Shown: piece after piece, positions 389 to 35,350 of the stretch
Numbering within the stretch: position 1 is the stretch's first letter
Layout: every line of letters begins with the position of its first letter
Assembly: GCA_905178155.1 (NCBI GenBank)
Contig: CAJINV010000002.1
Coordinates: 4,222,285 to 4,262,595 of the forward strand
Source: Amoebophrya sp. A120
Lineage: Eukaryota > Protista > Dinoflagellata
Direction of reading: 5' to 3'
Length of the DNA: 40,311 bases
Translations under genes and position numbers: made by a program
The notes under the pieces: generated by a model
The model's input: only the letters and a program-made list of their open reading frames with translations
Told to the model about the DNA's origin: nothing
Database searches by the model: none

Positions 389-3300
389 CGAGCCTACACG
401 GGAGCAGTACCGTCTCCAGGAACTCCGCCACCTCCACCACTGCGAGCTGCTGGAGCATGTTCGACACACACATGGCGCTATGCTTTGCAAAAGCATCGTA
501 CTAGTTAGTAGAAATCGCATTACAAATTCGGTCAGCATGACAAATGCAATTTGTCATGCTGTAGTTTTGCCTTGGGATGGAGATTTCGATTTGTAAATGC
601 ATGCTTGCGAAGATTACTACGAGTGCGATACTTTTGCACAGGATAGGCGCTGTGCTACTGCAAAAAGCCTAACGCCGCCAAGGTGTCCTATGACACTTCG
701 GAGAATTTGTCCTCCGCGGCGCGAACACTGTTTCTGCCCGACGTGACCAAAACCGACCATGGGTGGCCACATAATGCTATCAAATGCAAATATGTCTGGG
801 TCCTCTGGAAACTTGTAATGCTGCGTCGGGAAATAAAATAGTGAATGCTCTGTAATGCACAGCCAAGCATGAGAAATATCTGCGCTTCTTTGTGTTGCGT
901 TTTTCGCATGACAAACTGCGTTTTTGCATGACAGGCAAAAGGGAAAATAGAATAGAGACGGCACAGGCAGAAGTGGTTTTTGACCGGTCTAGTTTTACAC
1001 ACGCGCGATATTTTTAGTCTTTTACCTAGATTTATGTGCTATTTACTCTTTTCCTAGGGGCTTTCACTTCGTGACCATTACGATGGTCATGGGCATTATT
1101 TCCATCCTGGTTCTCGAATTTGTTGCAGCTTGGCCAAATTGTCATGCGATTTCTCAGTTTGGTCATGCTCTGCTTTGATCTCGTGGCACTTTTTACTTGG
1201 GCGTCGTGTTTGTCATGCTGGACGTACCAACCTCATTGTTCTCCTGGCTATTTGCATGTTGGTCCCTGGACTTGGACGTTGGCGCCACGATCGCAACTCC
1301 ATTTCCCAAACCGCTGCTTTCTTTCCTGCTAGAAATTCGAGATGCCACCTTTAGGATGGTTCGTTCGGTAGGTGGGACTGTGTCATAATTAGTTTCTTCA
1401 CGCCCTTTTTTACTTTTCTTTTCTGTTCCCTCGGTGCTAAGACACGAATCTTGCACAGTGCTAATTCTACTCAGATAACAACAGAACTCACATCGTAGCA
1501 CTCCCAGGAGTCTCGGTTGCTGTCTCTCGGTAGAAGTCGCGCAGTTCAATTTTCTGGCTTGGAGTTTACCGGGTACGCGGTCTGGCTTGGAGTTTACCGG
1601 GTAGACCGGCGCTTTTTGTGTCGGCCCGCCGAAGTTTCGCGCGCGGGTTTAGCAGTCTTCTTTCTCGCGAAAAACAAAAAGGTGAGTCTCCTGACCCTTC
1701 CGGTCGTCACCACTCCGCCCGCGTTCGTGCTCGCACGGCGCCACCACGAGGACCACCACGGTTAAAGTCCTGGTTTAGTCCCTGGCCCGGTCTGCTAATC
1801 CGGGTAAGTAGCAGCATCGTCGTGCTTCTTCGCTAAATCACTTACTGGCGCCTGACCGCAGCTCGGGGAGTAATTATATAGACGGTCGCCGCTTGTGGTG
1901 GTCAGAGGCGTTCGAGTCTAGTTAGTCCTTAGCTGCGCGCTACTCTTTCAGTTCGTGCGGGCTCCAGGTGCTGCGATCACCGGCAGAAGCTTAACAACAG
2001 CGAACATAAGGACGTTAGATTTTTGATTGCTCTACATTACAAGACCGGCACTTGTGTCGGCCCGCCGAAGTTTCGAGCGCGGGTTCAGCAGTCTTCTTTC
2101 TCGCGAAAAAGGTGAGTCTCCTGACCCTTTCGGTCGTCACCACTCCGCCAGTATTCGTGCTTGCGCGGTACCTCACGATGACGTCGATGATGACGGTTAA
2201 AAGTTTGCAGCCTTAATTTACAAAGGGACGCCCTGCTGCCCTTAGTTTCCCAACATGACAGGCAAAAGGGTCTCTTCTTGGACACGCATCACAAACTTTT
2301 TGGTCATGCCAGACGAGCATGACAAACTTGCATTTTTCCAGACCCAGACATTTTTACAATCCATAAATGCAGTGACCACCGAGCGCGTTACCGTGGACTC
2401 TTTGCTGACCCGGAAACTGGACCCAACCCTCATATCAAATGCAAAAATTTCTGGGTCTGAAAGGTTGGAACTTGTGATGCTAACTTTGGACTCCAAAAGA
2501 ATCTGTACTGCATGACCAGCAAGAGGAGTCTAGTTTGTGCTACGCGGGGAGGGCATTTGTCATGCAGCGGAGTAGGCATCAGGAAGCCCACCTCTAAAAA
2601 TCTGTGATGCTAGGTCGTGCATTACAGACATCCTGAGTCATGATGCAAAATATGCATGACGAACCCGGCAACATTGCAGACCCAGACACTTTTGCGTTTG
2701 ATACCTCAAGGCGGAGCACAATCTGCTGGCGCGGAGCACGATTATGTCCAATCAGTATCGGCAGGACAGCAATCCCCGGTATGTGTCCAAGTATCGGTCC
2801 TATGCGAAGAATATGCACTGCAAAAGTATCGTACTCGTATAGATGCATTACAAATTTCCTCAGCATGAGAAATAAAATTTGTAATGCTAATCTGCCTTGA
2901 GAACAAGGTTTGTAATGCAAGACTTGCATTAGCATTTATACGAGTGCGATACTTTTGCACAGGATAAAGAACTGGGTGCTCGCGGAATTGGGCGAAAGCT
3001 GCGAGCTATCAAATGCAAATATGTCTGTGGGTCTGGAAGGATACAACTTGTGATGCTACTCTTGGAATCTACATAAAATCTGTATTGCATGGACAGCAAA
3101 ACAAGAGGTCGAGGTGTAGTAATTTTCGGTACGCGGAGAGGGCGAGGGCGTTTCTCATGCGGTATGAGCATCAGAAAGCCCTCGAAAAATCTCTGATGCT
3201 CGGGCATGCATCACAGACCTCATGGGTAATGCAAAATCTGCATGACAAACTCCTGCTCCTGCATTCTTTCAGACCCAGATAGTTTTGCAATCCATACGAG

Positions 3301-6300
3301 CTCACCTGCGCGAAGAGCGGAAATCGGGTGTGCAACGCGAAGGAGCTTCTGAAGCTGACGTCGGTGGAGAAAGTCGACCTGGCCCTGGCTGAGGCTCTCG
3401 GCGAGAAGATCGAGGTCGGGAGTATGAACTGCAGAAGTATCGTACTCGTATAAATGCATTACAAATTTCTTCAGCGTGAGAAATAAAATTTGTAATGCTG
3501 ATTAAGGTTAAGAAAAAGATTTGTAATTATGCATGAGTGCAATACGAGCACGATACTTTTGCACAGGATAGGGAGCGATGGAAGCTTATCGCACGGCCTG
3601 CAAACCGGGTGCGCCGTATCAAATGCAAAAGTGTCTGGGTCTGGCAGAGTGCAAACTTGTCATGCAGCTTTTCCATGACCCGCGAGGTCTGGAATGCGGG
3701 ACCTAGCATCACAGACTCTGTGGGATCTCTACCATGCCCATCCTGCATGAGAAATCCCCTCCCAACTCGGTCGAAAGTGGACAGCTTTTGGCACTCATGC
3801 AACACAGATTTTTTGCATCATTCAGATTTAGCATGACAAGTGGCAACCTCCCAGGCCCAGACATGTTTGCAGTGCGTACGCCACCGCGGCGAACAATCCC
3901 GATCGAGGGTCGAACAACCACTCAAGCGCGCGCAACTACCCCGGCGTGCCGGCACTTTCTTGGCCCGGGACGTGCTCGTACTACACTTCGGCCGCCAATA
4001 ATGTGATCGGGAGACATACGCAATGTAAATTTCCTGTACATGATGTACAAAATGCATGACAAATTTCGCTACCTTGCAGAGTCCAACTTGTCATGCTGGA
4101 CTAGGATTGAAGGCAAGTTTTGTCATGCAGAGACTGCATTTGTACGGGAGATTTACTGGTGATAAGACACATCCGCACGGACGGCACGGTCCCCCTGGCA
4201 ACCGAAAACGTGGAATATGCATTGCAACAGTAACGTTAACGTACTAGTATAAATTGCATTACAAATAATTTTTTGCAAGAACAAAAGTGGGATTTGTAAT
4301 GCTGTTTTACCTTAGGAGGAAGATTTGTCATGCCTATCTGCAATTACTACGAGTACGAGTACGTTAGTACTTTTGCACAGCATATGGAAGTCACCGTCAC
4401 AACCTGCGATATTGCGGGCGCGGGCGATGGAGGTGTGGCCTCCCTGAAAGTGAAGCTGTTCGAGCGCACAGCTACCGGGAGCGGAACCGCCACCGAGCAC
4501 ATCCTGTCTTTTTCGCTCGTGAATGACAATGCGGCTTACACCCAAACGGCCACGGGCCTGGCCGGCTCGATCTCTCGCGTCACTGTTTACGTGGTCACGA
4601 CGTCAGTGAGCGACTTGTCCACCTGGGGAGTGTGCATCGAGAAGATTCACATCGACACACTGGGGCCCATCAACTTCGGAAGCCGCTTCTGGTTCAAAGG
4701 AGCGGTCCGAAATGAATTTGACGGCGTGCCGGAGTTGATGGTCACCGGGGGGACTGGCCCGGCCAACTGGCCCGCGGAGTACAAGCAGGCGTTCATTTAT
4801 GTGAATCCCAACTACGATCACGGCATGGTGTGCTCCGCGAAACCTGCCTACCCAAAGCACGACCTATGCAAGAAAAAAACTGTGTAAGAAGTCGTGTAAG
4901 TCTGTGATGCAGAAAATGCAGAACAGTTACACTTGTCATGCCAGACAACCACGAAGTCCTCTTTCCCTCTGTGTTATCCCTTACAAGAATATGCATGACA
5001 GGTTTTCTCTGTCATGGGGAGTAAATTTGTGATGCTGTCAGCCAAAGGAAGCTACACTAGTAGCTCAGTTTTATTTTTCTTTCATACGACCGGCCCATCT
5101 GCTACTGTGACCACTATGAGATTTTGGCCAACGCGGGGGAGGTATCCAGGAAAAAACACCCATCCCCATCCATCTTTTGCATGACAAACACTGCTTTTGA
5201 CGCATGTTTTGCATGACAAATTGGATGGGGATGGGTGTTTTTTTCTGGATAGGAGGAGGTAAAAGTGGGCGACGCGTTATCCAAAGAAAAAAGTTTTACA
5301 GTTACACACTAACTATTTGTAGTAACTTCAGCACGACAAACTTGTTGCTCTTCAGCTTCATTTCAGACAAAAGTTGCAATGCAGAAATTATAAGGGAAAG
5401 CATGTACAACTATGAGTATGAAACGATTCTCGCAAGAAGCGTTTCCGGCATGACAGAGGTTGCCTGCTGTCTTGCTAGTTTTACATCACAGTGCATAACT
5501 GTAACCTTTTTTGCTCTCCATGCGCGTTGGTTTCCCGCGGTTGGCCCGCGTTTCCTCAGTGGCAGATGGTCACTGCCGGCACGTATCAACTGCAACCATG
5601 TCATCTGGATCTGGAACTTCGTGATGCTAAAGTGTGCATGATGAAAAGCAAAAGACTTCCTTATGCTGCTGGAACGCATGACAAATTTGCAGAACGCTTT
5701 CTCATGATACGAACTCCGCATGGGAAGCTGCGTTTTTGTATGACGTGACGAGAGGCTGCCACTTCTGTTGGTCACACACGCAATACAGATTTCACAGGAA
5801 AAATGTAAGACCAGCATTACAAGTTCCAATTTTCCAGACCCAGACATTTTTGCATGTGATAGCACATATCAGACAGACGCAGAGGCGGGGACCTTATGAA
5901 CTGCAAAAGTATCCTCGTACTAGTATAAATTGCATTAGAAATTTCCGCAGCGCGAGAAATAAAATGTGTAATGCGGACTTGCCTTAAGAAAAAGATTTGC
6001 AATGCAAGACTTGCATTTATACGAGTAGAAGTGCGATACTTTTGCACACGATAGACCTACAGCGAGTACCTCACCGTGTTGAACGCGGCTAACCAAGTAT
6101 CCTGAGTAAAAACGTACCCACCCCATAGTCAAGTTGTTATTTTGGTAAATCTGCAACACAAATCTCCATGTTTTGGGAGTTGTGCATGGCAAGTCCAAGT
6201 TTCCATCTGTAGTGTAGTGCTGTTTAGGAAGGACAGCTTCAGCTGCATCACAGAGACGCCTGCTCATCCTGTTTACATCAGCATTACAAATCCCATAACA

Positions 6301-8512
6301 CGACTAAGTACGAATTCCCCTCTTGCGGATGTACATTAGTTACAGATTTTTCTGTATGCAAATCTGCATGGCAGGACGCTTTTAAATAGGATACCAAATA
6401 AAGGTTATAAATGCGGGACCACAGGTTGTATCAAATGCAAAAATGTCTGGGTCTGGAAGATTCTGAAACTTGTCATGCACGTTTTGCATGGGCCAGCACT
6501 ATGTCGGTGATGCATGCCCTAGCATCACAGACTTTTTGAGGGCTTCGCCGCGATACCTTTTCCGCATGACAAATGCCCTCGCCGCGTAGCCAAAATTGCA
6601 TCCCCTTTTTTGCTGGTCATGCAATACAAATTTTTTCAGAATCCAGAGACAGCATCACAAGTTTAGAATGTTCCAGACCCAGACATTTTTTCATTTGATA
6701 CGTTGCTAGCAGCATGTACGGCGTTCTCAAACGTTACATTCTGAACTGCTACGTGAACAATTTGTAATGCAAGAATGGCAAAAGTGCAAGGCGGAACCGG
6801 AAGATTGCGCCTTTTGCATTACAAGTTTTGCCGCGCAGATTATCATGCTATCTAGTGCTTCGTGGACTTGTCATGCGAAGCAGCTTGATCATGTAGATAT
6901 GTATTGCAATTGTGCAGCATGATGACAAACTCATGTAACAGTTGAGAGTGTAGTAACGTTTGAAAACGCCATAGCATGGGCGTTGCGTCCTTTTGGATCA
7001 AACCCTTTTCCAGTGGAAAGACGAAAGTTACCAGCTACCATCGGTTATCAAGCGAAAATTTGTCTGGGTCTATGCATGTTTGTCATGCTTGTCTGGCATG
7101 ACTCTTAAATCTGTCATGCACGTTAGAAGTACTCAAGAGGAAGAGCTCCGCTTTTCTGTCGTGCAGAAACTACGGAGCTTGTCATGCAGAATAGGCAACA
7201 CAACCTAGAAGCTCAGAAACTTGCCATGCTGAGCCAGCACTTGTGGCCTCCTGCTCATGATACGCCACCCAGCATCACAAGTTTCCAGACAACATCCAGG
7301 GACATTTGCAATGCATATCGCTCACTCAATTACGACGCGGACGAAGAAGAAATCCCAGCCGTTATCCTGAGGAAGAACGTCCCCACACCAGAGTCAAGAT
7401 GGGAAATCTGCTAGACAAATCAACCACTTTTCATTGCTTCGCATGACAAGTTTGCCCTCATAGTGTGATCCTTTTTCGCTAGTTCAGCAGCGTCACTGAT
7501 CTAGCGCATCATGCTGATTCTAGCATCACAAAGTCCAAAACACGACTAGAAAACGCTTCTCATGGGGGTCCGCGTGAGAAACTTTTTTGGTATGCAGATT
7601 TGCATCACAACTCTGGGGTGGCGACGTTTTTACTCAGCATAGCCGTGTCGTCCGACACTGCTTGGCAAGATGTGCTCTGTGCCGTTCACATGAAAGTGCG
7701 CATGGAGTATCCGTCGCAAACTTATTGCAAGGAAAAATCCCCCCTCCCCATCATATTGAAAACATGTCCTTCTCCTTCCAAAAATTTGTGATGCAGATTT
7801 GTGGCCACAAATCCTGTCTGTCTTCCCAGAAGGCAAATCCAGAGAGTCCGCCACGATATGCAGGCGGTTTGTAATGCTGCAAGGCCTACAGGGCATACGT
7901 CTGCCATGCCAGGCCCCTACACCAAAAGGCCCCCCCCTTAGGCTTGCAATCTGCGTGCAGTGCTCTCCTGCAAGACAAATGTGCCCGCGTCACAGATTTC
8001 AGCTTTGATATGCTGGGGAGGGTGGATTTTCATTTTGATAAAACTGGTATCACGGTGGGGGACACGGCCGAGTGTGCGGCAATATCCTGCGCAAAAAGTT
8101 TGTACTTACTCGTCGTCATCCACATTACAAATGTGCGTTGCTCGCCCTGAGCAAATTATTTGTCATGCGATTTGTACAACTAGTAGGTGCGATAGTTTTG
8201 CGAAGTGCATAAGTTTTGGGGAGCTGCAACTCGGCGTCCGGGGATGACTCTCTTTTCTACTGGTTCTCGGGGAGAACAGAAGGACCGAAGGAGCGTGCGG
8301 TAGATGCAAGCTTTGCAGCGCACACTGGGAGTGGAGGGGGGGCAACTTGGAGCACCTGGCTCCCTCTGACCAAGTATGAGCACCGTTTTGTGACCTCGGA
8401 CATCGTTTTGCTGAACCTGGGAGTGCGCGAAGACGGGCTCCAAATCGCGGCACTGAAACTCGAGTGCAGCCAAGGCAGCGCAGCCTGGGTGAAGGTGAGC
8501 GCTTGGCGCTGA
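389..8512 (+). CDS. Gene 1 (5'-partial, multi-exon): Cys-rich, probably extracellular protein with a PLAT/LH2-like domain; interrupted by 22 introners
   Basis: Removing each element plus one 5-bp repeat gives one ORF to TGA 8510-8512: SLHGSSTVSRN...HMALCYCKKP...GWPHN|AVTTERV...YAKNWVLAELGESCELTCAKSGNRVCNAKELL...ENVEVTVTTCDIAGAGDGG...WGVCIEKIHID...MVCSAKPAYPKHDRPICYCDH...AAWVKVSAWR*. Domain names are by motif resemblance only. Confidence 0.8.
479..645. mobile_element. Introner family B
   Basis: TIR TAT..TGCAAAAG / CTTTTGCACAGGATA; direct repeat (DR) ggcgc/ggcgc. Confidence 0.9.
778..2365. mobile_element. Introner family A carrying the 1.3-kb nested insertion
   Basis: TIR ..ATGTCTGGGTC / GACCCAGACAT..; DR aatgc/aatgc; frame joins HN|AVT. 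Confidence 0.85.
944..2253. mobile_element. 1310-bp non-coding element nested in introner 778-2365, with a 17-bp target duplication
   Basis: CATGACAGGCAAAAGGG at 927-943 and 2254-2270. Removing the insert restores a normal-length family-A introner. Internal direct repeat ~1617-1765 vs ~2054-2200; 28-bp-period tandem at 1553-1603. Confidence 0.85.
2433..2703. mobile_element. Introner family A
   Basis: TIR; DR cctca/cctca. Confidence 0.9.
2812..2966. mobile_element. Introner family B
   Basis: TIR; DR aagaa/aagaa. Confidence 0.9.
3007..3296. mobile_element. Introner family A
   Basis: TIR; DR cgagc/cgagc. Confidence 0.9.
3423..3570. mobile_element. Introner family B
   Basis: TIR; DR gggag/gggag. 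Confidence 0.9.
3617..3878. mobile_element. Introner family A
   Basis: TIR, ends GTA; DR cgccg/cgcca. Confidence 0.85.
4017..4164. mobile_element. Introner (singleton)
   Basis: TAC..GTAAATTTCCTGTACA / TGTACGGGAGATTTAC..ATA; DR agaca/agaca. Confidence 0.85.
4216..4384. mobile_element. Introner family B
   Basis: TIR; DR tggaa/tggaa. Confidence 0.9.
4865..5086. mobile_element. Introner family E
   Basis: TATGCAAGAAAAAAACTGTG start; DR cgacc/cgacc. Confidence 0.85.
5143..5251. mobile_element. Introner (singleton, 109 nt, near-perfect ~29-bp TIR)
   Basis: TATCCAGGAAAAAACACCCATCCCCATCC / GGATGGGGATGGGTGTTTTTTTCTGGATA; DR ggagg/ggagg. Confidence 0.9.
5278..5522. mobile_element. Introner family H
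   Basis: TIR TACAGTTA/TAACTGTA, ends ATG; DR cgcgt/cgcgt. Confidence 0.85.
5584..5861. mobile_element. Introner family A
   Basis: TIR; DR gcacg/gcaca. Confidence 0.85.
5895..6053. mobile_element. Introner family B
   Basis: TIR; DR gacct/gacct. Confidence 0.9.
6098..6393. mobile_element. Introner family I
   Basis: TATCCTGAGTAAAAACGT / GACGCTTTTAAATAGGATA; DR ccaag/ccaaa. Confidence 0.8.
6429..6700. mobile_element. Introner family A (reverse orientation relative to 11536)
   Basis: TIR; DR ggttg/cgttg. Confidence 0.9.
6717..6973. mobile_element. Introner family D
   Basis: TACGGCGTTCTCAAACGTTAC / GTAACGTTTGAAAACGCCATA; DR gcatg/gcatg. Confidence 0.9.
7046..7317. mobile_element. Introner family A
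   Basis: Degenerate TIR; DR tcggt/tcgct. Confidence 0.85.
7363..7641. mobile_element. Introner family I
   Basis: TIR; DR gccgt/gccgt. Confidence 0.85.
7723..8040. mobile_element. Introner family F
   Basis: AAAAATCCCCCTCCCC / GGGGAGGGTGGATTTT; DR aaact/aaact. Confidence 0.9.
8083..8211. mobile_element. Introner family B-like, degenerate
   Basis: TAT..ATA with weak TIR; DR lost (ggcaa/agttt), but removing element+5 nt keeps the frame. Confidence 0.7.
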
Positions 8513-16900: not shown

Positions 16901-19044
16901 GAATGGAAAGAACGCACGGGGGAATAACAAGTCCCGGAGTTCGAAAAACAGCAACAATTCGAGCGTGCTGATATGCATTGCAAAAGTAGCGTTCTAGTAT
17001 AAATTGCATCACAAATTTTATTTCCAAAAGGAAAAAAGGAATTTGTAATGCTGATTCACCTGAAAAGGGAGATTTGTAATGTATGACTGCAACTTCTACT
17101 ACCTGTACCTACGACTACGAGCGCGATGCTTTTGCGTAGGATAGCTGAACAACGTTCGCAACTCCGACTACTCCTCCGTCCGCAGTTCCGCGGGGAAAAA
17201 CAGTCTCATTCTGGAGACCAACGCCGGTAGTCTGCGCAGCCAGAGCTCGGGCATGAACACGCGCAACCAGAGTCAGCGACCCAGCTACATGATGCACAAC
17301 AGCACTTCTATGGCCCCAACGTTGTTGGAAAACACCGGGGGGTCAGGCGCTTCGCACAACGAAATGATATGAATTGCAAAAATGTCTGGGTCTGGAAGAA
17401 TGCAAGCTTGTCATGCTTGTCTCACATGACTCTTAAATTTGTCATGCACATTACCCAAGACCCCCATTTTGATTTTTCTGTCATGCAGAAACGCAGTCTG
17501 TCATGCAGAATAGGCAACACCAAGAAGCTCAGAAACTTGTCATGCTGAGCCAGCACTTGTAGCCTCCTCATGATACGCCGCCCAGTATTACAAGTTTCCA
17601 GACCCAGACATTTTTACAGTTGATAAATGAACAACAATAACAACTCTGCGAGTAGCTCCGTATACAACACGAACGTACCTATGCAATGCAAAACTATCGT
17701 CCTAGTATAAATTGCATGACAGATCTTTCCTAGAAGAAAAATGAAATTTGTCATGCAGATTCAGGTAAGGAAGGAGATCTGTAATGCTAGACTCGCATTA
17801 TTTATACGAGTACGATACTTTTGCACAGGATAGTACCGAAAAGAAACAAGCTGCTGACCGACAAAACCATTGTGCAAACAGTCGCGAATGCGCCGGTGCG
17901 GGGGACACTGCCGCAACCTTCCCCACCACCGCCCCCGCAGCCCACAAATTTGGTGGAACACCAGCGGAGTCTTTCTGCGACGGCGGGGACAGCAGGAGGT
18001 GGAACTACACATAACAACTATCAGATGAACTATTCCATCCCGAATTCGAGCCGGGCGTCGAGTCGGAGTATATCCATTGCAAAAGTATCGCACTCGTATT
18101 GCAGTCATGCATTACAAATCTTTTTGTCGAGGTAAATCCGCATTACAAATTTGATTTCTCATGCTGAGGAAACTTGTAATGCATTTATGCGATTACGATA
18201 CTTTTGCCATGCATAGAGTAAGAGGACCAGCAATTTGGACAATACGCAGATCTCCTCTATCGATAACAACAGCAGGCTGAACACGGGGTACACTCAGGCG
18301 ACCAGCACTGCCGGGATGAACTACGACCCAAGCGGAAATGGTATCAATTCCCGGGCGATCGTGCAGCACTACAACCTGATTACCAAGGTGACGCCCGCGA
18401 AAGTAAACACGGTGATGCACAAGGAACCAGTGCACGCGCCCGCCATGCTGGGAGCAGGCGGCTCGTATTTTTCCCCTGGAAGCTTAGGAGGTCGCGGAGA
18501 TGTTGAGCCCCGTGGTCATTTTCAGAGTGCCGCGAGTAACATGAAGCAAACGAAAAATAAGCCCAACGACCGGGCGAAGAGCACGCCGAATATGTTGGCA
18601 GGTGGGAACAAGGCGGGAAATAACAACAGCAGCAGTATGAATAAACCGAGCTACTATCCGAATGCAAACTCCCCGGCAAAAATTGCGGCGACTGCGGTGC
18701 TATCAAATGGAAATAAGTCTGGGTCTGGAAGAATGCAAGTTTGTCATGCTTGTCTGGCATGACTCATAAATCTGTAATGCCTGAGCTGGAAAATGGCCGC
18801 CTGCCTGTCATGCAAAAACGCAGTTTGCCATGCGGAAAACGAACCACAGTAGTAGTTGAAAAATTTGTCATGCGTGGCTGCGTATTGCAGTCCCGTCCGC
18901 CCACCAGTCACATTTTAGCATCGCAAGTTTCCAGACCCAGACACTTTGTTTTGCAGTTCATAGGTCCGGGCCGGCGGGTTCGTGCATGACGTCTACCCGA
19001 TTCCCGAAAATTTTATGTTTGGTGACGAGAATAAATATAGGTAG
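10927..19044 (+). CDS. Gene 2: EF-hand-pair protein with Asn/Ser-rich C-terminus; 21 introners plus 2 GT-AG introns
   Basis: Continuous frame from ATG 10927 to TAG 19042-19044 after splicing. It includes YDFDQDGVVGPRDYFIGRYFDVGKKGYLTQEERKKA (two EF-hand-like loops assembled across two introners) and ends VRAGGFVHDVYPIPENFMFGDENKYR*. Confidence 0.8.
11063..11320. mobile_element. Introner family A
   Basis: TIR, ends ACA; DR agact/agacc. Confidence 0.85.
11536..11797. mobile_element. Introner family A
   Basis: TIR; DR ccggc/ccgac. Confidence 0.9.
12004..12175. mobile_element. Introner family B
   Basis: TAC start; DR cgact/cggct. Confidence 0.85.
12198..12498. mobile_element. Introner family C
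   Basis: ~38-bp TIR TATGGAAGCGTCAGGATTGAAATCG..; DR ggtat/ggtat. Confidence 0.9.
12584..12853. mobile_element. Introner family A
   Basis: TIR; DR ttcct/ttcct. Confidence 0.9.
13122..13428. mobile_element. Introner family C
   Basis: TIR; DR acggg/atggg. Confidence 0.9.
13493..13642. mobile_element. Introner family B
   Basis: TIR; DR cgcag/cgcag. Confidence 0.9.
13723..13908. mobile_element. Introner (singleton)
   Basis: TGTTAACGCT/AGCGTTAACA inner TIR; DR gattg/gattg. Confidence 0.85.
13970..14166 (+). other. Canonical GT-AG spliceosomal intron
   Basis: GG|GTAAGT...CATCAG|G joins KIPGL-G-YQPHPQ in frame. Confidence 0.75.
14368..14545. mobile_element. Introner family D
   Basis: TIR; DR tccct/acact. 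Confidence 0.85.
14613..14771 (+). other. Canonical GT-AG spliceosomal intron
   Basis: G|GTATAC...CAACTAG|TT removes an in-frame TAG and joins FGEH-V-LTYHAT. The acceptor choice is inferred. Confidence 0.6.
14810..15023. mobile_element. Introner family H
   Basis: TIR; DR gcatc/gcatc. Confidence 0.9.
15119..15274. mobile_element. Introner family B (reverse orientation)
   Basis: TIR; DR acttg/atttg. Confidence 0.9.
15364..15510. mobile_element. Introner family B (reverse orientation)
   Basis: TAC start; DR accag/accag. Confidence 0.9.
15552..15711. mobile_element. Introner family B
   Basis: TIR; DR agcag/agcag. Confidence 0.9.
15757..15992. mobile_element. Introner family G
   Basis: GTGCACAACTC / GAGTTGTGCAC; DR gcctt/gcccc. 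Confidence 0.85.
16052..16283. mobile_element. Introner family G
   Basis: TIR; DR gtttg/gtgtg. Confidence 0.85.
16354..16626. mobile_element. Introner family A
   Basis: TIR; DR acttg/acttg. Confidence 0.9.
16972..17143. mobile_element. Introner family B
   Basis: TIR; DR gctga/gctga. Confidence 0.9.
17368..17625. mobile_element. Introner family A
   Basis: TIR; DR aatga/aatga. Confidence 0.9.
17680..17832. mobile_element. Introner family B
   Basis: TIR; DR gtacc/gtacc. Confidence 0.9.
18071..18215. mobile_element. Introner family B (reverse orientation)
   Basis: TIR; DR gagta/gagta. Confidence 0.9.
18701..18962. mobile_element. Introner family A
   Basis: TIR; DR ggtgc/ggtcc. Confidence 0.9.
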
Positions 19045-21057
19045 GTCTTCTTGTTTGATGCTGCAGCCACTGCTGTACTTTTCTTGCCTGAGCTTGTGTT
19101 TTAAAGTGAAGAACGTAAGAGCGAGATTCGAGAAGTAGAGGCGTCAAGTAGAAGAAAAAGATCTGTCATGCTGCCTCGGTACGTTTTTTACAAAGAAGTG
19201 TAGTTCATGTTGTAATAAAAAATCAATAAAATGTGTCTTGTTGCATGCAGCAGCAAGAAGTACTAGACCACGAGAATTTTTACGCCTGCATACCACACGG
19301 AAAACTAGTCATGGATGATGGAAAGCACCACCCTTGGTAAAAAAAATCTTCGGGCGAGAATTATCGAGGCGATTTTTGTCATGGAGAAGCTGCAACGTGA
19401 CTGTAGTTTGCGTTGCACGTCGTTGAGATTGGTCTGAATGTACTTCAAGCAAAGGAAATACGACGATACAACAGACACTAAACGCTCAAAGAATTATTTG
19501 AAGTCCTCTTCTAGATCGTGTTTGTCCAAAGCATACACTATGTTTGAAGCTGTACTAATGTTTCTAGTAGTGCGAGTGCTACTGCTACTTCGCTTGTTAC
19601 CACCTTGTTTTCATTGCTTTTTGAATTGTAGTTTTCACAGAAGATTATTCACATGAACCTGTCCACGAAAGTTTGTTTGTTTGTTTGTTTGAGTATCTAC
19701 TAGCTTGTCTTTGCATTTTTTTATGTAATTTGTTATGCTAAATTTGTCTTTGAGTTGTTTCACAAACTAACACTGTAGCTTGCCTTGTTTTGTTTCGCAG
19801 ATATTTTTTGATGCTCTGTATCATCACCTTGTTTTTATTGACTTTGCAACCAGTTTGACTTTGAATTTGAAATATTGACTTGCGCACACGACTCCTCGCT
19901 TTGAAGACGAGTTTACAACTGTAAAATACGTGTTATGACACCGACTTGATTTTTGATTCAATTTGACAACTTATAACTTCGGACTTTTCTTAAATGAAAA
20001 TGACAGAATCTCGATCCATTTTTACAACAACAAACTTCGCGATAGTTGTCAGTTTTTGTTGTCGCAAGTGGTCGTTGATTTGTTGGCAAAACTTTCGCGC
20101 TGTCGCGTTGTATTATTTAGCGCTGTCCTGTACAGAAGATATTGAAAAGAACATGGAAGATCAAACACGATCACGACACTTGTTGCATTAGCGCAGCCTG
20201 ACGACAGCAGCTTTTGCAACTAGGAATTGAAAGATGAAATTTCCGAAACAACTACGTTTGCTTTTGCTATTCAGCATCAACTGTACATAATAATCGGCGA
20301 AAGCCACCACGACCTAGCAGATTCATTCTGCGTGCGGCCTCTTTGAAGCTGCAATAACTTCAGGGACTAGAATGTGTTGGTAAGAAAAAGACCACATATT
20401 GATACTGGAAGTCGCGCCTGGCCGAGCAGAAAAGTTACGGTTACCAAGAACCCCTTACAAATAAAATTGCTCGCATCATTTTCATTTCTACCCCAGGACC
20501 ACACTGGCGGGGCCCGCTCGGAGACGGTTTTTTTTGCTCTTTGCCTTCTTTTTCCGGTTCATTTTCACGCAAATTGCATTTTAATAATTTTGCTTCCTCG
20601 CATGTTGACCCCCAAACCAGGCCTCGTAGAAGTTCACACATGTCTTCACCACGTGCCAACAAGCACTACCTTAACCTTTTATTCCTACGAACGGAGGAGC
20701 GGCTACTTGGACCTCCTCGCTTCATCTACTTTGCGACAGCAGTGACTCGCGACTTTTTTGTAGCTTTTCACGAAAATGGATGAACCCATATTTTCACTTT
20801 TCATTTTGCGGAGTAAGGCCACAGGACAGCACCACAACAGTTGGCATGGATGGGCATACTCACTCGGGGGGGGCGAATGTTAGTTTCTCTTAAGTATCCA
20901 AGAATATTAGCTGCGGTCAACATCCCTGTCGTTGTCCTCCTGCTCACCTCCTCTTGTAGCTCGATAAGTTTTTGTCGTAGAGCTGCAGAACTCCCTGACC
21001 CTGGCTGTAGAAAAAATAAGCGAAAGCATGTATGAGCTCATGTCTAATTTTTCTGCC

Positions 21058-24000
21058 ATGATCTACAATATTTTTTTTTGAAAATAAATGGACGAGAGCC
21101 GGGTCATCTTCAAAGTCTTCGACCAGTAGCACTGGGTCGACCTCCGGCGTGCCGCTCCACCCGCAACACTTAAATAACCCTTCTGCCGGCAACAGCGTCT
21201 ACACAACGGCAACATCGTCCGGCAAGATGAATGCAGCCTCCTCGTCCTCCTCCAGCTGCAGGCCCCCACCGCCCAAGACGAAAGCCCCGAATCCGCCACT
21301 GAGAAGTTGTGTTAAACATCAAGTGATGGCTATCGCAAGAAAAAACTATTTCACTGGAAACTTGTAATGCAGAAAATGTATATGAATGAGAACTGTTTCT
21401 CTTGCTACAAGACAATGGCTGTTTAGCTGTGTTTTCCCGTAGGAATCTCGCATGGCAAATTTTCCCTGTGATGTAGAACAAACTTGTGGTGCAAAACTTG
21501 CAAAACCCTTACAGTGAAGCACTTTTTTCATACGATAATGGCCGCAAAAAACACCGTCGAGCTCATCGACTACTGGTCGGGAAACCCCGCGGTCGCGCTG
21601 GTGGAGGGGGTCCTGAAGTGTAAGGAGTGGGTGGAGGACGAAACTTTTCCAAAGCTTCACAGCGAAGATTTGTTCGACAATCTTCCCGAAGATGCCGGGA
21701 CGAGGAGCAAGCAGCTGATTGTGGAGAAGATCGGGGCGGTGAAGCCCTATGAGAGTGCACAACTCCCCCTCCCCCTTATTTGTGTTGCATGAACAGCAAC
21801 ACAAGCGCTGGATAAGATACAGCTTTTGCATGACAAATTCCTAGTGGATTATAGTGCTGTTTTGGATGCCGGCATCTGTCATGCAAACAGTGCTAACAGG
21901 CAAGGGGTGGATTTGGAATTTTGCATGACAAATGAGGGGGGGGAATTGTGCACTTTCATAAACCCCCGCCAGGGTTGATAAACCCGAACAACCCGAGTTA
22001 TGGGATTCTCAAACGTTACATTCTCAACTGTGACATGAATTTGTCGTGCAAAACTACCATGAACCACCAGACAATCAAGCCACCTGGCATGACAAATCCC
22101 CGAAGGGCTAAACAGCGCCTAAATCTGTGCCGGAGTTGTGATGCGAGAGTTGCAAGCTTGCCCCTTTCACTGTTGCGGTTCTTGCATCACAAATTTATGT
22201 AACAGTTCAGAATGTCACGTTTGAGAACGCCATACGAGTAACAGCCTGGTGCTGTTATGCTCCAACGTGCCGAACGTGCTCACCCCGTCGGAGTTTTGCA
22301 CCAAATGGATGCATATCAACTGCAAATTATATGTCTGGGTCTGGAAGAATGCAGGTTTGTCATGCTTGTGCGGCATGAGTCTGAAGTCTGTGATGCAGGC
22401 GCAGGAAAATTTGGGCCTCTTGCCTCTCATGCAAAAACGCAGCTTGTCATGCGAAAAACGAAACACACAGCAGCGCAAAAACTTTTCATGCTGGGCTGCA
22501 TATTGCAGTGCGCCCACAATTCGCAGATTTGCATCATAAGTTTCCGGACTCAGACATATTTGCATTTGATAATGCACATGCGCACCAACGTGTTCCAATT
22601 CACAAGGGTACTACACGGGAAGAAGCCCCAGTACTACATGCTTCTGATGGCACTGCGACCGGAAATCACCCCGAGACAGGCCAACCTGCTGTTGCGCGAG
22701 TACAGGAAGAAGCCGTATTTTGGAACAGCGGGAGGTGCGGCTGGACCTCCATTTTTACACCACCAGCAAATTGCAGCAGGCGGTGGTACTAGAGCGGTAG
22801 GGCGGTTACTAGATAGCGACAGGAACTACAACTACGGCCACGATATAACAATGGATAATTCTCGTGCTACTTCAAAGTGGGAAATGCCCAGCCTCCACTA
22901 CGTGTTCGAAGCGACGGTGATGGTAAGCCAGAACCGAATTTCCTCCGCAGCGTCGCCAGCCCCAGCACCACCCACTGACCCGCAGCTGCTGATGAGTTAC
23001 ATGAAATCCCCAAGAGTGAACGTCACTAGTTCGCTATGCAAGAAAAAAACTGTGTCAGTGTAATTTTTTGTTGCAGACGATGCAAGACACTTACGACTGT
23101 CATGCTGGACATGCATCAGTGGCTCTTTTCGTACGTCGTCTTTTCACTTACTAGGTACGCATGACAGGTTTTCTCTGTCATGCAGAGCAAACTTGTGACG
23201 CTATTCCTCCAAGAAAGTTACACTTACACAGTTTTTTTCTTCAATATTCGCCTTTCTTAGACCTGTTTCCGCAGCTGCTTAGCAGCAGTAGTGCCACGAC
23301 TGCCGGCGGAGCAGGACAGCAAAACATCAACAGTGCGGGAGGCGGTGTACCACCCTGTTCGTCTTCGCAGAGCATCTCTCTACCAAGTTCAACCTCGCCG
23401 GCAGGAGCTCTGGCAGCGACTGGAAGCAGTGGTGCCGTCGTTTGGGGACAGCATCACGTCGTGGGAGGTACTATTGGATCCTCCTCGGCAACCTCATCTT
23501 GTTGTTCGCCACGAGAACAAGTGGACGAGATGAGGGTGCAACAAGACCTAGTGGTAACATCAAATGCGGAACAAGATGAACTCCTGCAGGAAACTACCGC
23601 AAATAGAAATTCTTCAGAACAAGATGCAGGTGGAGCTATTAATTATCAGGTCAACATGACCTTAACCGGCTTCGAAGACGAGGAGGGAGATGCTGGTTGC
23701 GACGGGCGGGGCGAAAATACTTCTAGCAACTACAATTTTCATGATCACACAACTTCGTCTGGCGACCACATCGACATCCCCCCGCTCCGGCACCCACACC
23801 CCGAATACGCGGGTGCAGTGGGTGGTCAGGTAGTTGCTGCGGTTGTTCCAGGAAGTTCTTGTGCAAGTAGTACAACGTTATCCTCTGCTTTGCAACAGCA
23901 GGTCCAAGTCCAACACCAGCAACCGCAACAGCAGCCCCCGAAAGAAAACCTCTTGGTCCTTCCCCCTTCCGCCGAGTGTATGGTTTGTCTGGAAACCTTA

Positions 24001-27000
24001 TCAGATGCATAAATATGTTGTCTTCAGTGCCTGGGTCGTTTGGAAAGAACTTGTGATGCAAGCGAGGGAATAACAATAAGAATGGACACACTCTAGTACT
24101 TTAATGCAGCGCTGCCGAGAATAAATATGACAACAAGCACAAGGCTCGTCTCCGTGCTGGTTCTTGCAACTACCTTCCAGACCCAGACACAGTAGATGAT
24201 TGCATTTCATAAACCTCGGACGAAATTTCGGACTTGGGGGGCGGCGTGCGTGTCACTCTACTCTGCGGGCATTCCTTTCACTCCATGTGCCTGTTGCGGT
24301 GGCTGGACCAAACCTGCCCGGTGTGTATGCATTGCAAATATGTCTGGGTCTGGAAACTTGTAATGCTGAGTGGCGTAGCCGTAGCAAAGCATGGGGAACC
24401 CATAAAGTGATGGCTCAGCATGACAAGCTTCTGAGCTCCTTCTAGGTGTTGCCTATTCTGCACGACAAACTGCGTCGCGCCTGCATCACAGAAAGATGGG
24501 GCTTTTGAATAACGTGCATGACAGACTTGAGAGGCTTGCTAGCCGAGCAAGACAAATATCGCTTTCTTCCAGGCCCAGGCATATTTGCATTCGATAGTGT
24601 GCCGCTTCCAACAATATCCCGCACCCATGTCTGTCCAACACTTCACCAGCACGGGCTGCGAGATATGGAATGCAAATATGTCTGGGTCTGGAACAAAGCA
24701 ACTTGTCATGCTAAATCTGAATCAGGTAAAAATCTGTGTTGCATCATTACCAAAAGCTCTCCACTTTTGACCTCCTAATCGAGAGGCAGTTTCTCATGCA
24801 GGATAGGCATGATAGAACAGTCACAGAGTCTGCCATGCTGTGTCGTACATACCAGACCTCATGGGTCATGGAAAACCTGCGTGACAAATCTGGCACTCTT
24901 CCAGACCCAGACTACATTTTTGCAGTTGATACGAGATCGAGTTGTGCGAATTCTACTGCAACACCGCGACACCCGACCCGGAAAACTTCTACCTGATAAC
25001 GCCGCTTCGTATGTGCCTCATTTGCGGTTTCACTGGCTGTCTCCCCCACGCGCTGTTTCATTTCGAAACCAACCCGGGGCACTGCTACGCGCTGGACCAC
25101 GCCACGCAAAAGGTCTTATCCTGTGCAAAAGTATCGTACTCGTATTGCAATCATGCATATACAAATCCTTTTGTTAACGTAAATCCGCATTGCAAATTAT
25201 TTTCTTTTCTCATGCTGAGCAAATTTTTTGTCATGCGATTTATACGAGTGCGATGCTTTTGGGTTTCATAAGTCTTTGACTACAGCAACAACGAGTTCGC
25301 GCATGATTTTCTTCTGGACCATGACGCTGGCGCCGTGTGTGAGGAGGCTCCACCTGTGGAGGACAGTGAGGTCCTCGTACCAGCGTTCGGGAAAATGGAA
25401 AACAGCCGACACAGGAGAGTGGAACAGCAGCAGCAGCAAAGCAGCTCGACTCTGATGAATAAAGAGGACCTAGCACCAGGGAAGAAGATGAAAGGTTTGA
25501 AGAGCAAGCACGCAATATGGGACTGTCAGGATCGAAATCGACAAAGTTGAAATATTTTCTGATGTATAAACTGCAATGCATGAAGTGCACCTCTTGTAGG
25601 GATGGCAAGTGAGGCCGACTGTCAGCCTAATTGGGGTCTGCGATAGAGCTGCTAAAGTAGCATGACAAGAGACGCCTTCTGTCCCTAAACAGCATCACAA
25701 AGTGGATTTAGACGGTGCCGAAATTTGTCATGCGGCGCTCGGAAATTTGGCTTCCAACTGGTTGTATCGATTTCATGCATTAAGTACAAGTTGTTTCAAC
25801 TTTGTCGATTTCAATTCTGACACTCCCATACGCCAAGAAGAAGCAAGAAAACGCGGTGATAGAGTTTAACCAGGTGCTCACACGGCAGATGGAGGAGCAA
25901 CGGCTGTATTTCGAGGATTTACTGGATATCCTGTGCAAAAGTATCGCACTCGTATAAATGCAAGTCTTGCATTACAAATCCTTTTCTTAAGGAAAATCCG
26001 CATTACAAATTTTATTTCTCATGCTGAGGGAATTTGTAATGCATTTATACGAGTGCGATGCTTTTGCAATTCATACTGGACAAAAAGGAGCAAGACGTGC
26101 AGTCGCTGAAGCGGGATTGCCTGCACAGGTTTATCAAAGTGAAAAATCCCCCCTCCCGCTCCCCATATCAAGACGAAAGTTCTGATCATGCTGGATTTGC
26201 GTACACAAATGACGTTGTCTTGCAATATTATAGGACTGCAGCCAGATCCTCAGACTGTTTAGGAGTGTAAGCGTCTAGCTGTTTAGCATGAGAGACGCCC
26301 GCCCTGTAGGCCCAACATCGCATGAGAAACCGCATCCACAATGCAGCGCACACAACAATGCTTGCCTTCTTGCACGACAGAGCTGATTTGTGACCACAAA
26401 TCTGCATCACAAATTTTCGGAGTGATGCCTTTTTGATATGGGGAGGGGGGATTTTTCGTCACAATAAGGTTAGAAGCGTTGTCTGTTGAGTTCGACACGG
26501 TTTTGCAACAGGAAGCGAGAAAAGCGGCGGAGTTGCAGCAAGCGAAAGCCAATCTGGAAACCTTACGGAGGAAACTCGAGGGCACGAAGAAGAAGAAACA
26601 AGACTGCGAGGCCGAAATTGAGAAGTACCAACATCTTCATGATGATCCCAACCACGGTACTACTGCTCCTCTTGGTGACGCATTAGCATCTTCATCATCT
26701 TCCGGGGGCGCATGGAATAGAAGTCAACCGGTACTATCAACAAGTAGAACTACCGCACGACCCTCGCCTGATGTGCAAGCACTGGCGATGCCGGCCTCGG
26801 TCCCTCGTCTGCTCACCAGTTGCTCTTCGTCTCCGGCAACATCAGCACCGTCCTCCTCGGTCAGCATATCAAAGTTGTGCACAACTCCCCCTGCCACTCG
26901 TTTGTCATGCAAAATTATACCAAATCCAAGCAGATGCAGATCCACCCTTTGCCCGTTGGCGCTGCTTGCATGACCAGTACTGGCAGCAGGTGCCCAAGTA

Positions 27001-27630
27001 GCACTACAAGTTATTATCCTGTGCAGGTAGTTTGTCATGCAAAACCTGCATGATATTCTTGCTGACGCTTGTATAGGTGTTCACGCCAACATGTTACAAA
27101 TAAAGAGAGATGGGGACGAGACGAGTCGTGCACTCGGATACAACAAGCCATTAACCGCGAAGGAGAAGAAAAACCAGGAAAAGGCATTGATCAAACAGCT
27201 GAAACAGGAATATTAAAAGGAAAAACTCCCCCTCCCCACATTGTCATTGAAAAGGTATGTTTCCGAAAATTTGCGTTGCTGATTTGTGGGCACAAATCAC
27301 ATTTGTCTTGCAAGAAGACAAGGGCAGAAGCTTCCGTCCCACTATGGAAGCGATTTGCCATGCTCTTGGGCCTAAAGGGCAGCCATTTGCAATGCTGAAC
27401 AACTAGACCGAAGCGCCGCCATTTAGGCTGGGAATCTGGCCGCAGTGCCTTCCTGCAATACAGAGCTGATTTGTGTACACAAATCCAGCGCCAGAAGTTC
27501 CGTTTTGATATGGAGAGGGGGGATTTTTGCCTTTGATAAGGAGGTAGAAGAGTTGAAAATGAATGTGCGCATGAAAGCAAAATTCAAAAAAGAGCAACTA
27601 GAAAACTCTGGGGTGCTGGGAACCATGTAA
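21058..27630 (+). CDS. BRAP: Gene 3: BRCA1-associated protein (BRAP2/IMP/ETP1-type) E3 ligase with BRAP2, RING-H2, ZnF-UBP and coiled-coil regions; 14 introners
   Basis: Spliced product contains IDYWSGNPAVALVEGVL; LCSNVPNVLTPSEFC; RING-H2 CMVCLE...[27 protein letters not shown]; ZnF-UBP MCLICGFTGC..HALFHFE..GHCYALDHATQKVFDY; and EFNQVLTRQMEEQRLYFE. Stop TAA 27628-27630. The start at 21058 needs a 1-nt correction in a T9 run. Confidence 0.9.
21331..21537. mobile_element. Introner, E/H-like
   Basis: TATCG..GAAAAAA / TTTTTTC..CGATA; DR atggc/atggc. Confidence 0.85.
21748..21960. mobile_element. Introner family G
   Basis: TIR; DR agccc/aaccc. Confidence 0.9.
21999..22234. mobile_element. Introner family D
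   Basis: TIR; DR cgagt/cgagt. Confidence 0.9.
22314..22571. mobile_element. Introner family A
   Basis: TIR; DR atgca/atgca. Confidence 0.9.
23035..23246. mobile_element. Introner family E
   Basis: TIR; DR ttcgc/ttcgc. Confidence 0.9.
23999..24211. mobile_element. Introner family A, degenerate
   Basis: DR aacct/aacct; splits the RING domain. Confidence 0.85.
24326..24596. mobile_element. Introner family A (reverse orientation relative to 17368)
   Basis: DR gtgtg/gtgtg; splits the last RING Cys codon (CPVC|RF). Confidence 0.92.
24664..24931. mobile_element. Introner family A (reverse orientation relative to 3617)
   Basis: TIR; DR cgaga/cgaga. Confidence 0.9.
25117..25270. mobile_element. 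Introner family B (reverse orientation)
   Basis: DR ggtct/agtct; joins TQKV|FDY. Confidence 0.9.
25516..25830. mobile_element. Introner family C (reverse orientation)
   Basis: TIR; DR cgcaa/cgcca. Confidence 0.9.
25927..26075. mobile_element. Introner family B (reverse orientation)
   Basis: TIR; DR ctgga/ctgga. Confidence 0.9.
26132..26466. mobile_element. Introner family F (reverse orientation)
   Basis: TIR; DR aggtt/aggtt. Confidence 0.9.
26867..27140. mobile_element. Introner family G
   Basis: TIR; DR cagca/caaca. Confidence 0.85.
27211..27538. mobile_element. Introner family F
   Basis: TIR; DR aggaa/aggag. Confidence 0.9.
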
Positions 27631-28665: not shown

Positions 28666-28870
28666 ATATCATTTGCGAATCTGTCTGGGTCTGGAAGCGC
28701 CCAACTTTGTCATGCATATTTTGCATGATCCACTATGATGCGCACTACTTTGCCGCCCATGTCTTGCATGATCCACTTTGTCGCGCGTGTTTTGTATAAG
28801 CCCACTTTTGTCATGCATATTTTGCATGATCCATCTTTTGCATGATCCATCACAAGTTGGATGCTTCCAG
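28666..28870. mobile_element. Orphan family-A left end followed by tandemly amplified TTTGTCATGCATATTTTGCATGATCC
   Basis: TATCATTTGCGAATCTGTCTGGGTCTGGAA; no matching right TIR seen. Confidence 0.6.
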
Positions 28871-28974
28871 TCCCCTTCCAGCTCGCGCAGCTCTTGATCA
28901 TCAAACACAAAGAACCACGACGACCATAAAACGCAAAGCACGGCGGCCTCTACTTCCCAAGGGCCTGGCCTGCG

Positions 28975-34659: not shown

Positions 34660-35350
34660 CCCGTGCTTCCATCCCGCTATCCCCGTGTTTCCCGGTTTCC
34701 CGTGCTTCCCGCTTTCCCCGTGTTTCCCGCTTCCCCCGTTCTTCCCGCCTTCCCCGTGCCTCCCACCTTTCTCGTGCTTCCCGTTTTTCCCGTGCTCCCC
34801 GCTTTCCCTATGCTTCCCGCTTTCCCTATGCTTCCCGCTTTCCCTATGCTTCCCGCTTTCCCTATGCTTCCCGCTTTCCCCGTGCCTCCCGCTTTCCCCG
34901 TGCTTCCCGCTTCCCCCGTGCCCCCCGCTTTCCCCGTGCTTCCCGCTTCCGCCGTGCATCCCGCTGCCGCCGTGCTTCCCGCTTTCCCCGCGCTTGCCGT
35001 TTTCCCCCTGCTTCCAGCGCTCCCCGTGCTTCCCGCTTTCCCCGTGCTTCCCGCTGTCCCCTTGCTTCCCGCTTTCCTCGTGCTTCCCGCTTTCCCCGTG
35101 CTTCTCCCTCGCTTTCCCCGTGCTTCCCGCTCTCCCCGTGCTTCCCGCGTTCCCCGTGCTTCCCGCTTTCCCCGTGCTTCCCGCGTTCCCCGTGCTTCCC
35201 GCGTTCCCCGTGCTCCCCGCCTTCCCCGTGCTTCCCGCCTTCCCCGTGCTTCCCGCTTTCCCCGTGGGTGCCGCTTGCTAGCTTTCCGCCCCGCCTTTCC
35301 GGTTCTTCCCGTTTTTCCCGTGCTTTTCGCCTTCCCCGTGCTCTTCACTC
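34660..35350. repeat. 18-bp pyrimidine-rich minisatellite (CCCGTGCTTCCCGCTTTC)
   Basis: Seen directly as a tandem repeat. Confidence 0.9.

Follow-up and report, generated by a model that had tools for sequence, protein, structure and literature searches.

How can introns be removed from a transcript when they lack GT-AG borders and lie in either orientation within the gene? This question is raised by a stretch of 40,311 nt from the genome of the marine parasitic dinoflagellate Amoebophrya sp. A120 (GenBank assembly GCA_905178155.1, contig CAJINV010000002.1, positions 4,222,285 to 4,262,595 of the forward strand), which as a whole is designated the window here and to which all coordinates refer. 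Between positions 2433 and 27538 it contains 54 inverted-repeat elements of the type TAT...ATA. How A120 and the related A25 remove the at least 60% of their introns that lack GT-AG has been a standing question since 2021. We give an even chance to the reading that these elements, known as introners, likely spread as DNA transposons and are likely cut out of the pre-mRNA at a constant distance from their ends, with a relaxed form of the cell's own spliceosome as the probable agent.

The elements measure 109 to 335 nt (median 236). They start with TAT or TAC (TA in 54/54) and end with ATA except for a single GTA, a single ATG and a single ACA (TA in 52/54), and their imperfect terminal inverted repeats have the end consensus TAT, seven looser bases and an A-run. 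Each of the 54 is flanked by a 5-bp direct repeat, which is perfect in 34 cases and has at least one mismatch in 20, and 45 contain stop codons in all three sense frames. Alignment of the element interiors placed 50 of the 54 into eight multi-member families, in which the two orientations are represented as follows: A 10:5, B 9:7, C 2:1, D 3:2, E 2:0, F 2:1, G 3:1, and H 1:1. With terminal inverted repeats, a target duplication of fixed length, no open reading frame, and both orientations, the elements have the hallmarks of miniature inverted-repeat transposable elements (MITEs). They also show those of the A120 introners, namely a location in A120 genes, an inverted repeat of 8-20 nt starting with TAT, a border repeat of 3-5 nt (5 bp here), and family structure.

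For the A120 introners, a TAT start followed by seven looser bases and an A-run, repeats of 3-5 nt, and 29,850 copies have been reported (PMC7789003). Since three exon queries from the window are 100% identical to deposited A120 proteins and the end consensus is that of Farhat (2021), the elements are, by their sequence, the published introners (Farhat 2021). They agree with these in organism, TAT-N7-AAA inverted repeats, 5-bp repeats, families, non-GT-AG ends, and a size of about 240 nt, and nothing differs in kind; what we infer in addition is a fixed register and a near 50:50 orientation. The available published text gives the border position as 'unknown' or variable and contains no treatment of element orientation (PMC7789003). 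A literature search, with subscription journals largely not covered, found nothing published on how A120 introners are oriented or in which register they are cut. The elements and their non-canonical ends are thus already published, and what the predicted fixed register adds is modest. In other Amoebophrya strains the introns are canonical, as they are in AT5 and the Karlodinium parasite.

The elements are listed below. The strand is the orientation within the family (a dot where none was assigned), k is the number of bases of the upstream repeat copy that are kept in the exon, and the ortholog is P0005.
2433..2703, +, family A, repeat CCTCA
2812..2966, +, family B, repeat AAGAA
3007..3296, +, family A, repeat CGAGC
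3423..3570, +, family B, repeat GGGAG
3617..3878, -, family A, repeats CGCCG/CGCCA, k at most 4
4017..4164, +, family B (distant), repeat AGACA
4216..4384, +, family B, repeat TGGAA
4865..5086, +, family D, repeat CGACC
5143..5251,., single, repeat GGAGG, GT-AG at k=4 (the sole one at k=4)
5278..5522, -, family D, repeat CGCGT, ATG in place of ATA at the 3' end
5584..5861, -, family A, repeats GCACG/GCACA
5895..6053, +, family B, repeat GACCT
6098..6393, +, family E, repeats CCAAG/CCAAA, k at most 4
6429..6700, -, family A, repeats GGTTG/CGTTG, k at least 1
6717..6973, +, family H, repeat GCATG
7046..7317, +, family A, repeats TCGGT/TCGCT, ends without predicted pairing, element nonetheless missing from the deposited protein
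7363..7641, +, family E, repeat GCCGT
7723..8040, +, family F, repeat AAACT
8083..8211, -, family B (distant), flanks GGCAA/AGTTT, k=3-4
11063..11320, -, family A, repeats AGACT/AGACC, 3' end ACA, k at most 4, ortholog agrees
11536..11797, +, family A, repeats CCGGC/CCGAC
12004..12175, -, family B, repeats CGACT/CGGCT, k at least 3, ortholog agrees
12198..12498, +, family C, repeat GGTAT, k=1 alone gives GT-AG
12584..12853, +, family A, repeat TTCCT
13122..13428, +, family C, repeats ACGGG/ATGGG, k at least 2, ortholog agrees
13493..13642, +, family B, repeat CGCAG
13723..13908,., single, repeat GATTG
14368..14545,., single, repeats TCCCT/ACACT, k at least 1, ortholog agrees
14810..15023, -, family D, repeat GCATC
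15119..15274, -, family B, repeats ACTTG/ATTTG
15364..15510, -, family B, repeat ACCAG
15552..15711, +, family B, repeat AGCAG
15757..15992, +, family G, repeats GCCTT/GCCCC
16052..16283, +, family G, repeats GTTTG/GTGTG, k at least 3, ortholog agrees
16354..16626, +, family A, repeat ACTTG
16972..17143, +, family B, repeat GCTGA
17368..17625, +, family A, repeat AATGA
17680..17832, +, family B, repeat GTACC
18071..18215, -, family B, repeat GAGTA
18701..18962, +, family A, repeats GGTGC/GGTCC, k=1 alone gives GT-AG
21331..21537, +, family D, repeat ATGGC
21748..21960, -, family G, repeats AGCCC/AACCC
21999..22234, -, family H, repeat CGAGT
22314..22571, +, family A, repeat ATGCA
23035..23246, +, family D, repeat TTCGC
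23999..24211,., single, within the RING domain, repeat AACCT
24326..24596, -, family A, within the RING domain, repeat GTGTG
24664..24931, +, family A, repeat CGAGA
25117..25270, -, family B, repeats GGTCT/AGTCT
25516..25830, -, family C, repeats CGCAA/CGCCA
25927..26075, -, family B, repeat CTGGA
26132..26466, -, family F, repeat AGGTT, k=2 alone gives GT-AG
26867..27140, +, family G, repeats CAGCA/CAACA, k at least 3
27211..27538, +, family F, repeats AGGAA/AGGAG

Seven further elements, which bring the count for the whole window to 61, lie outside 2433-27538:
479..645, +, family B, repeat GGCGC
778..2365,., 1588 nt, family-A ends with about 1.3 kb of cargo, perfect repeat AATGC
36615..36865, +, family A, repeat TCTGC
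36929..37190, +, family A, repeat GCACG
38222..38518, +, family A (distant), repeats ACTTC/ATTTC
38752..39123,., probable element, flanks TGTTT/TACAT (weak repeat), ends uncertain
39175..39496,., repeat CGCTT

The exon queries assigned the host genes, all three of which lie on the + strand, to the deposited A120 proteins and also matched an A25 ortholog (P0002) and a second ortholog (P0005).
2744..8512, +, host gene 1, deposited A120 protein P0003 (556 amino acids, without a recorded Pfam domain), 18 elements within the coding sequence
10927..19340, +, host gene 2, deposited A120 protein P0004 (1048 amino acids), ortholog P0005, 21 elements, two canonical introns and one odd last intron
21227..27630, +, host gene 3, RING, zf-UBP and coiled-coil, deposited protein P0001 (966 amino acids), A25 ortholog P0002, 14 elements

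We take the product of host gene 3 to be BRAP2-like.

The elements are absent from the deposited transcript-based models and from the orthologs. Every element is removed in the models as the element plus 5 nt, and retention would leave the transcript in frame and free of stops in none of the 52 cases tested. As the models were built from transcript alignments (PMC7789003), this removal constitutes indirect RNA evidence, and non-canonical sites in A120 were confirmed by RNA-seq (PMC7789003). An explanation without any unusual splicing would hold that cryptic GT/GC-AG sites are used, that one orientation is kept in the transcript, or that the DNA itself is deleted in the manner of the internal eliminated sequences of ciliates. 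An in-frame, stop-free GT/GC-AG pair is indeed available within 15 nt at 35 of 52 elements; at the other 17 it is not. The TA-bounded ends are reminiscent of ciliate eliminated sequences; we know of no germline/soma split in the Amoebophrya parasite. Exact removal was compared with alternatives within 15 nt at 35 junctions of genes 2 and 3, 17 of which lie in gap-free, ortholog-conserved blocks. Two of these 17 have an in-register GT-AG, five lack any GT/GC-AG alternative within 15 nt, and ten offer off-register GT/GC-AG alternatives only, all of which fit the ortholog worse than exact removal. The two outcomes by which the initial annotation proposed to be judged, junctions at cryptic GT/GC-AG sites nearby and an unspliced orientation, were not encountered at these junctions: exact removal scored best, and families A, B, and G are each represented there in either orientation. 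Together with the retention result and the RNA-seq confirmation mentioned above, this largely refutes the cryptic-site and DNA-deletion explanation already, and we regard it as highly improbable.

When the junction was slid through the repeat, GT-AG was obtained at four of the 54 elements (5143, 12198, 18701, 26132) and at none of the seven outside; by chance, exon 5-mers give 1.9 of 54 (P=0.12 for at least four). The initial annotation had named the same four elements, counted against the 61 of the whole window. It had further stated that the same families occur in both orientations in genes transcribed from the same strand, and interior alignment reproduced every pair it named. Its view that a strand-specific donor, branch, or acceptor signal is unlikely agrees with our finding that no such signal is needed, the inverted repeat giving the same ends both ways. 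The step from there to a non-spliceosomal route does not follow, because a symmetric element offers the same signals either way and orientation independence therefore cannot separate a spliceosome from another machinery.

A second data set came from a motif search of metagenome contigs, which yielded 149 loci (L001-L149) with one accession prefix, none of them with the genes of the window. In these loci 377 elements were called, of which 264 were given a strand and frame and 113 were dropped for want of a confident assignment. The element finder recovers 43 of the 54 window elements without false calls and demands TA at both ends, so that the TA invariance in the loci is by construction. Among the 264, 243 join families of the window, with an orientation of 130 versus 113. 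The second assembly carries the same families at about 70-80% identity, and on this sequence evidence the element invasion reaches beyond the window's own sequence. GT-AG-compatible sites number 19 of 264 in the second assembly (12.2 expected, P=0.044) and 23 in the pooled data (14.1 expected, P=0.018). GT-AG is not required for removal; given this mild excess a slight preference may exist, and the independence from GT-AG is near-complete, perhaps not total.

Where the cut falls within the duplicated 5 bp can be read from the 20 of 54 elements whose repeat copies differ, the difference being residue-changing in 10. When k=3 or k=4 was applied to all 53 coding elements, no difference was found from P0003 (556 amino acids compared), P0001 (966), and P0004 (the first 1034 of 1048, the last intron being left out); k=0, 1, 2, and 5 gave 7, 5, 4, and 4 differences from the three deposited proteins. 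The ortholog P0005, which is independent of the A120 annotation, has the residue expected for k=3-4 at all five informative positions (R46, D182, R302, S432, F557). The opposite possibility, implied by the published description, is a homology-guided sliding junction, in which the cut varies within the duplicated 5 bp and a seemingly fixed register arises by chance from the small number of sites and from the way transcripts were aligned. The 34 perfect repeats are uninformative, the informative elements number 10, and with random registers per element the probability that some single register fits all 10 is P=0.037 (simulation), a modest value; the legends of Fig. 3 and S23 moreover give variable positions (PMC7789003). 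A sliding junction is nevertheless unlikely in view of the 11 of 11 informative positions that fit k=3-4, the independent agreement of the ortholog, and element 8083, which is removed as the element plus 5 nt though four of its five repeat bases differ. From the loss of five extra bases in this element despite the mismatches, the removed length appears to be measured and not set by repeat homology.

For the 26 loci elements with amino-acid-changing mismatches, a Pfam scan covered 28 of 54 flanking exons, and the homolog test was made on L041, where in a Rab5-like gene k of at least 4 gives Ala and k of at most 3 gives Asp; anchored homolog segments have Ala in 33 of 56 and Asp in 1. From these sequence comparisons the register is likely k=4, and k=3 also fits the window data. 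A wobble between k=3 and k=4 was considered and rejected: although each of the six position-4 mismatches in the window is synonymous, the second assembly has 9 non-synonymous ones among 22. As a separate observation, the first repeat base falls on codon position 3 in 26 of 52 elements (26:14:12) and in 139 of 264 (139:70:55). This bias, equivalent to a phase-0 excess at k=4, may be a target-site preference; a symmetric target-site matrix, circular by design, gives most of it, and it was not used.

At k=4 the 5' end of the intron reads N-T-A-T-(C/G), and U+2 and A+3 are present in 54/54 elements, a count that depends on the predicted register. Both bases are shared with the two canonical introns of gene 2, while positions +1, -2, and -1 are free.
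13970..14166, +, canonical intron in gene 2, GT-AG, GTAAGT...CAG, without inverted repeat
14613..14801, +, canonical intron in gene 2, GT-AG, GTATAC...CAG, without inverted repeat

In 45 of 54 elements a UUU run lies 10-22 nt upstream of the 3' end (43 of 54 on the other strand). Since U+2/A+3 and the U-tract derive from the inverted repeat, an element provides them whichever way round it is inserted.

These features can be assembled into a mechanism. A transposase acting on DNA would insert the element either way round and duplicate 5 bp; the resulting anatomy is observed, and the enzyme is presumed. Reverse splicing of excised RNA would keep one orientation, so the ratio near 50:50 favours DNA transposition, which is the most likely mode of spread. 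A120 inverted-repeat elements with Copia/Gypsy-like open reading frames (PMC12130899) represent a candidate enzyme class, not linked to these ends. The removed piece would be the element plus 5 nt, as it is in the comparison with the deposited transcript-based models and the orthologs. The upstream exon would keep 4 nt of the first repeat copy (3 fits the window too), giving an intron of the form N-TAT(C/G)...ATA-NNNN. Recognition would rely on U+2 and A+3, which either orientation presents like a normal donor, on the U-tract, some 10-20 nt upstream of the 3' end, and on a stem joining the two ends. A U2/U5/U6 core would then cut at N-UAU without needing G+1, and the 3' site would be chosen not by AG but by its distance, 4 nt beyond the base of the stem. 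In A120, nearly all spliceosome proteins and U2, U4, U5, and U6 have been reported (PMC7789003). The predominant motifs in Table S4 are only NT-NN in A120 and TT-NN in A25, and the A25 repeats start with TTA and two purines (TTA-RR) (PMC7789003). A relaxed spliceosome is favoured because of U+2/A+3 in two strains, the near-complete spliceosome, the precedent of a changed U2 spliceosome in Fritillaria, and the mild GT-AG excess.

A considerable number of points weigh against this mechanism or its register. U1 small nuclear RNA (snRNA) was not found. At k=4, G+1 is present in 16 of 54 elements (89 of 264 in the loci, 82.8 expected) and an AG end in 4 of 54 (23 of 264), and the transcribed strand shows no preference for G at +5 (24 versus 26; loci 80 versus 94). 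There is no sense excess of the branch-point motifs YTRAY (7 of 54 versus 12 antisense; 28 versus 28 of 264) or CTRAC, and 15 of 54 elements lack the internal GCATnACA motif on their sense strand. The TA ends may come from the transposase alone. The motifs of Table S4 fit the U+2/A+3 register, but the table may reflect aligner tie-breaking, and the Fig. 3 legend describes the splice sites as variable relative to the hairpin (PMC7789003). As to the register, 5 of 32 random patterns at the five ortholog sites fit some single register, and exactly k=4 derives from one site (L041) in another assembly. Codon-likelihood and AT-direction tests on the loci settle no register; a codon likelihood of 16:6 for the upstream copy at repeat position 4, with flat control positions (8:10, 8:6, 6:6, 7:6), was given no weight.

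The GT(GC)-AG ends of the U2 type are found in 1 of 54 at k=4 (5143) and in 4 of 54 in any register. Against the U12 type, with its RTATCCTT donor, C stands at +5 in 28 of 54 and +6/+7 are mostly A, and minor snRNAs are reported to be absent in A120 (PMC7789003). The bulge-helix-bulge and IRE1 motifs were examined at k=4 only. The internal GCATnACA was tried as a branch point and rejected, as it has no fixed distance and occurs in 62 sense and 77 antisense copies; we think it more likely to be a transposase-binding repeat.

A doubtful but still sizeable possibility, corresponding to the non-spliceosomal route of the initial annotation, is a separate machinery as in Euglena, in which the stem is recognised, an endonuclease cuts 1 nt before and 4 nt after it, the exons are joined by a ligase, and the intron is released as circular or linear RNA. 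Such a machinery would account for the missing G+1, AG, and branch-point signals, and the ends are indeed predicted to pair: at 20 C, at least 8 expected pairs were obtained in 48 of 54 elements in sense and 50 of 54 in antisense, and the folding z is below -2 in 49 of 54 (median z -6.2). N1-TAT...ATA-N4 has the same 3' excess of 2-3 nt as the tested Euglena pattern N3CDG...CH'GN5-6 (PMC12501133), and euglenid introns of this kind exit as circles, without lariats (PMC11282704). The hairpin, however, bears no mark of selection at the RNA level, since G-U pairs are not favoured over A-C (26:36 in the window, 190:197 in the second assembly) and the transcribed strand is the more stable in 23 of 54. 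Element 7046 lacks predicted end pairing and is removed all the same. A bulge-helix-bulge with its central 4-bp helix was found in 1 of 54 and 3 of 264 elements (antisense 2 and 5) and the IRE1 motif (CNG|CAG loops) in none of the window or loci elements. A literature search for Amoebophrya and RtcB, again with subscription journals largely uncovered, returned no paper. Positions 1-3 of the inverted repeat pair in 49-53 of 54 elements, positions 4-7 in 23-30, and positions 8-21 mostly, a pattern repeated in the second assembly; the terminal triplet is thus preserved for its sequence more than for a place in an uninterrupted stem. A Euglena-like machinery would leave U+2/A+3, shared by A120 and A25, unexplained.

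The nonconventional introns of euglenids (PMC12501133; PMC11282704) resemble the A120 elements in terminal pairing, slidable direct repeats, absence of GT-AG, a likely MITE origin, a base-paired triplet whose offset is constant and whose 3' tail is the longer one, and canonical introns alongside. They differ in the triplet (CDG/CH'G versus TAT/ATA in A120) and the offsets (3 and 5-6 versus 1 and 4); a purine at the start of exon 2 is not required in A120 (29 of 54), and circles have been shown in Euglena only. The full euglenid signature N3CDG...CH'GN5-6|R is accordingly not present in the elements, while terminal pairing with a longer 3' tail is (predicted, 48 of 54). The spliceosomal introners of Polarella glacialis and Aureococcus anophagefferens (10.1101/2020.10.14.339549) likewise are introns derived from DNA transposons, with target duplications and, in several classes, both orientations. 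They take their G(T/C/A)-AG ends either from the element itself or from the duplication, which makes them dependent on special targets, unlike those of A120, where GT-AG is possible in 4 of 54 and the target sequence is near random. Closest to the relaxed spliceosome preferred here are the MITE-derived introns of Fritillaria borealis (PMC11282704), which have inverted repeats, target duplications, and non-GT-AG ends and are removed by a changed U2 spliceosome. Their ends are mostly AG-AC or AG-AT, whereas A120 has no fixed terminal dinucleotides.

If a spliceosome removes the elements, it would tolerate any base at +1, -2, and -1 and be looser than that of Fritillaria; if not, A120 would possess a second, independent Euglena-like system. 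The fixed register predicts the exact ends of the excised RNA, N-UAU...AUA-NNNN, and makes the removal mechanism directly testable. Leaving the choice of machinery aside, we lean slightly towards a genome-wide, orientation-blind splice code derived from transposon ends, which a U1-less spliceosome or a second machinery would read by cutting one base before TAT and four after ATA in any flank. If true, such a code makes any insertion into a coding exon silent and explains the spread of tens of thousands of copies.

With regard to distribution, no element was found in 4.3 kb of intergenic DNA (8513-10926, 19345-21226), where the density of 6.9 per kb seen in coding sequence would predict about 30, none inside the canonical introns 13970-14166 and 14613-14801, and none nested within the 54. 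Insertion or retention is limited to coding exons, as judged by a finder that needs intact ends. A degenerate family-A-like left end at 28667-28870 lies outside any gene and has no matching right end or repeat.

Some observations concern the host genes. The reading frame of gene 1 is open further upstream, through 2433, 778-2365, and 479, once these elements are removed, and the deposited P0003 is therefore probably truncated at its N-terminus. The last intron of the deposited P0004 (19013-19296) is of the TT-AC type and has no element ends, and the C-terminus downstream of it is backed by the ortholog. Relatives of P0004 were looked for in the metagenome contigs; none of 81 pattern matches was confirmed.

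An Rfam search gave no match in the window, nor in 1-2450 at E<=1. The right-hand part of the window contains a satellite with units of about 93 bp in some 40 or more copies (28950-33360) and, at 34600-36070, strongly strand-skewed tandem arrays with units of 18, 17, and 7-15 bp. A repeat of about 150 nt without Rfam match is carried inside elements (1-151, 1603-1753, 2010-2160) and is also present in the second assembly (L007:5890-6043, 86% identity); it is possibly a second mobile unit.

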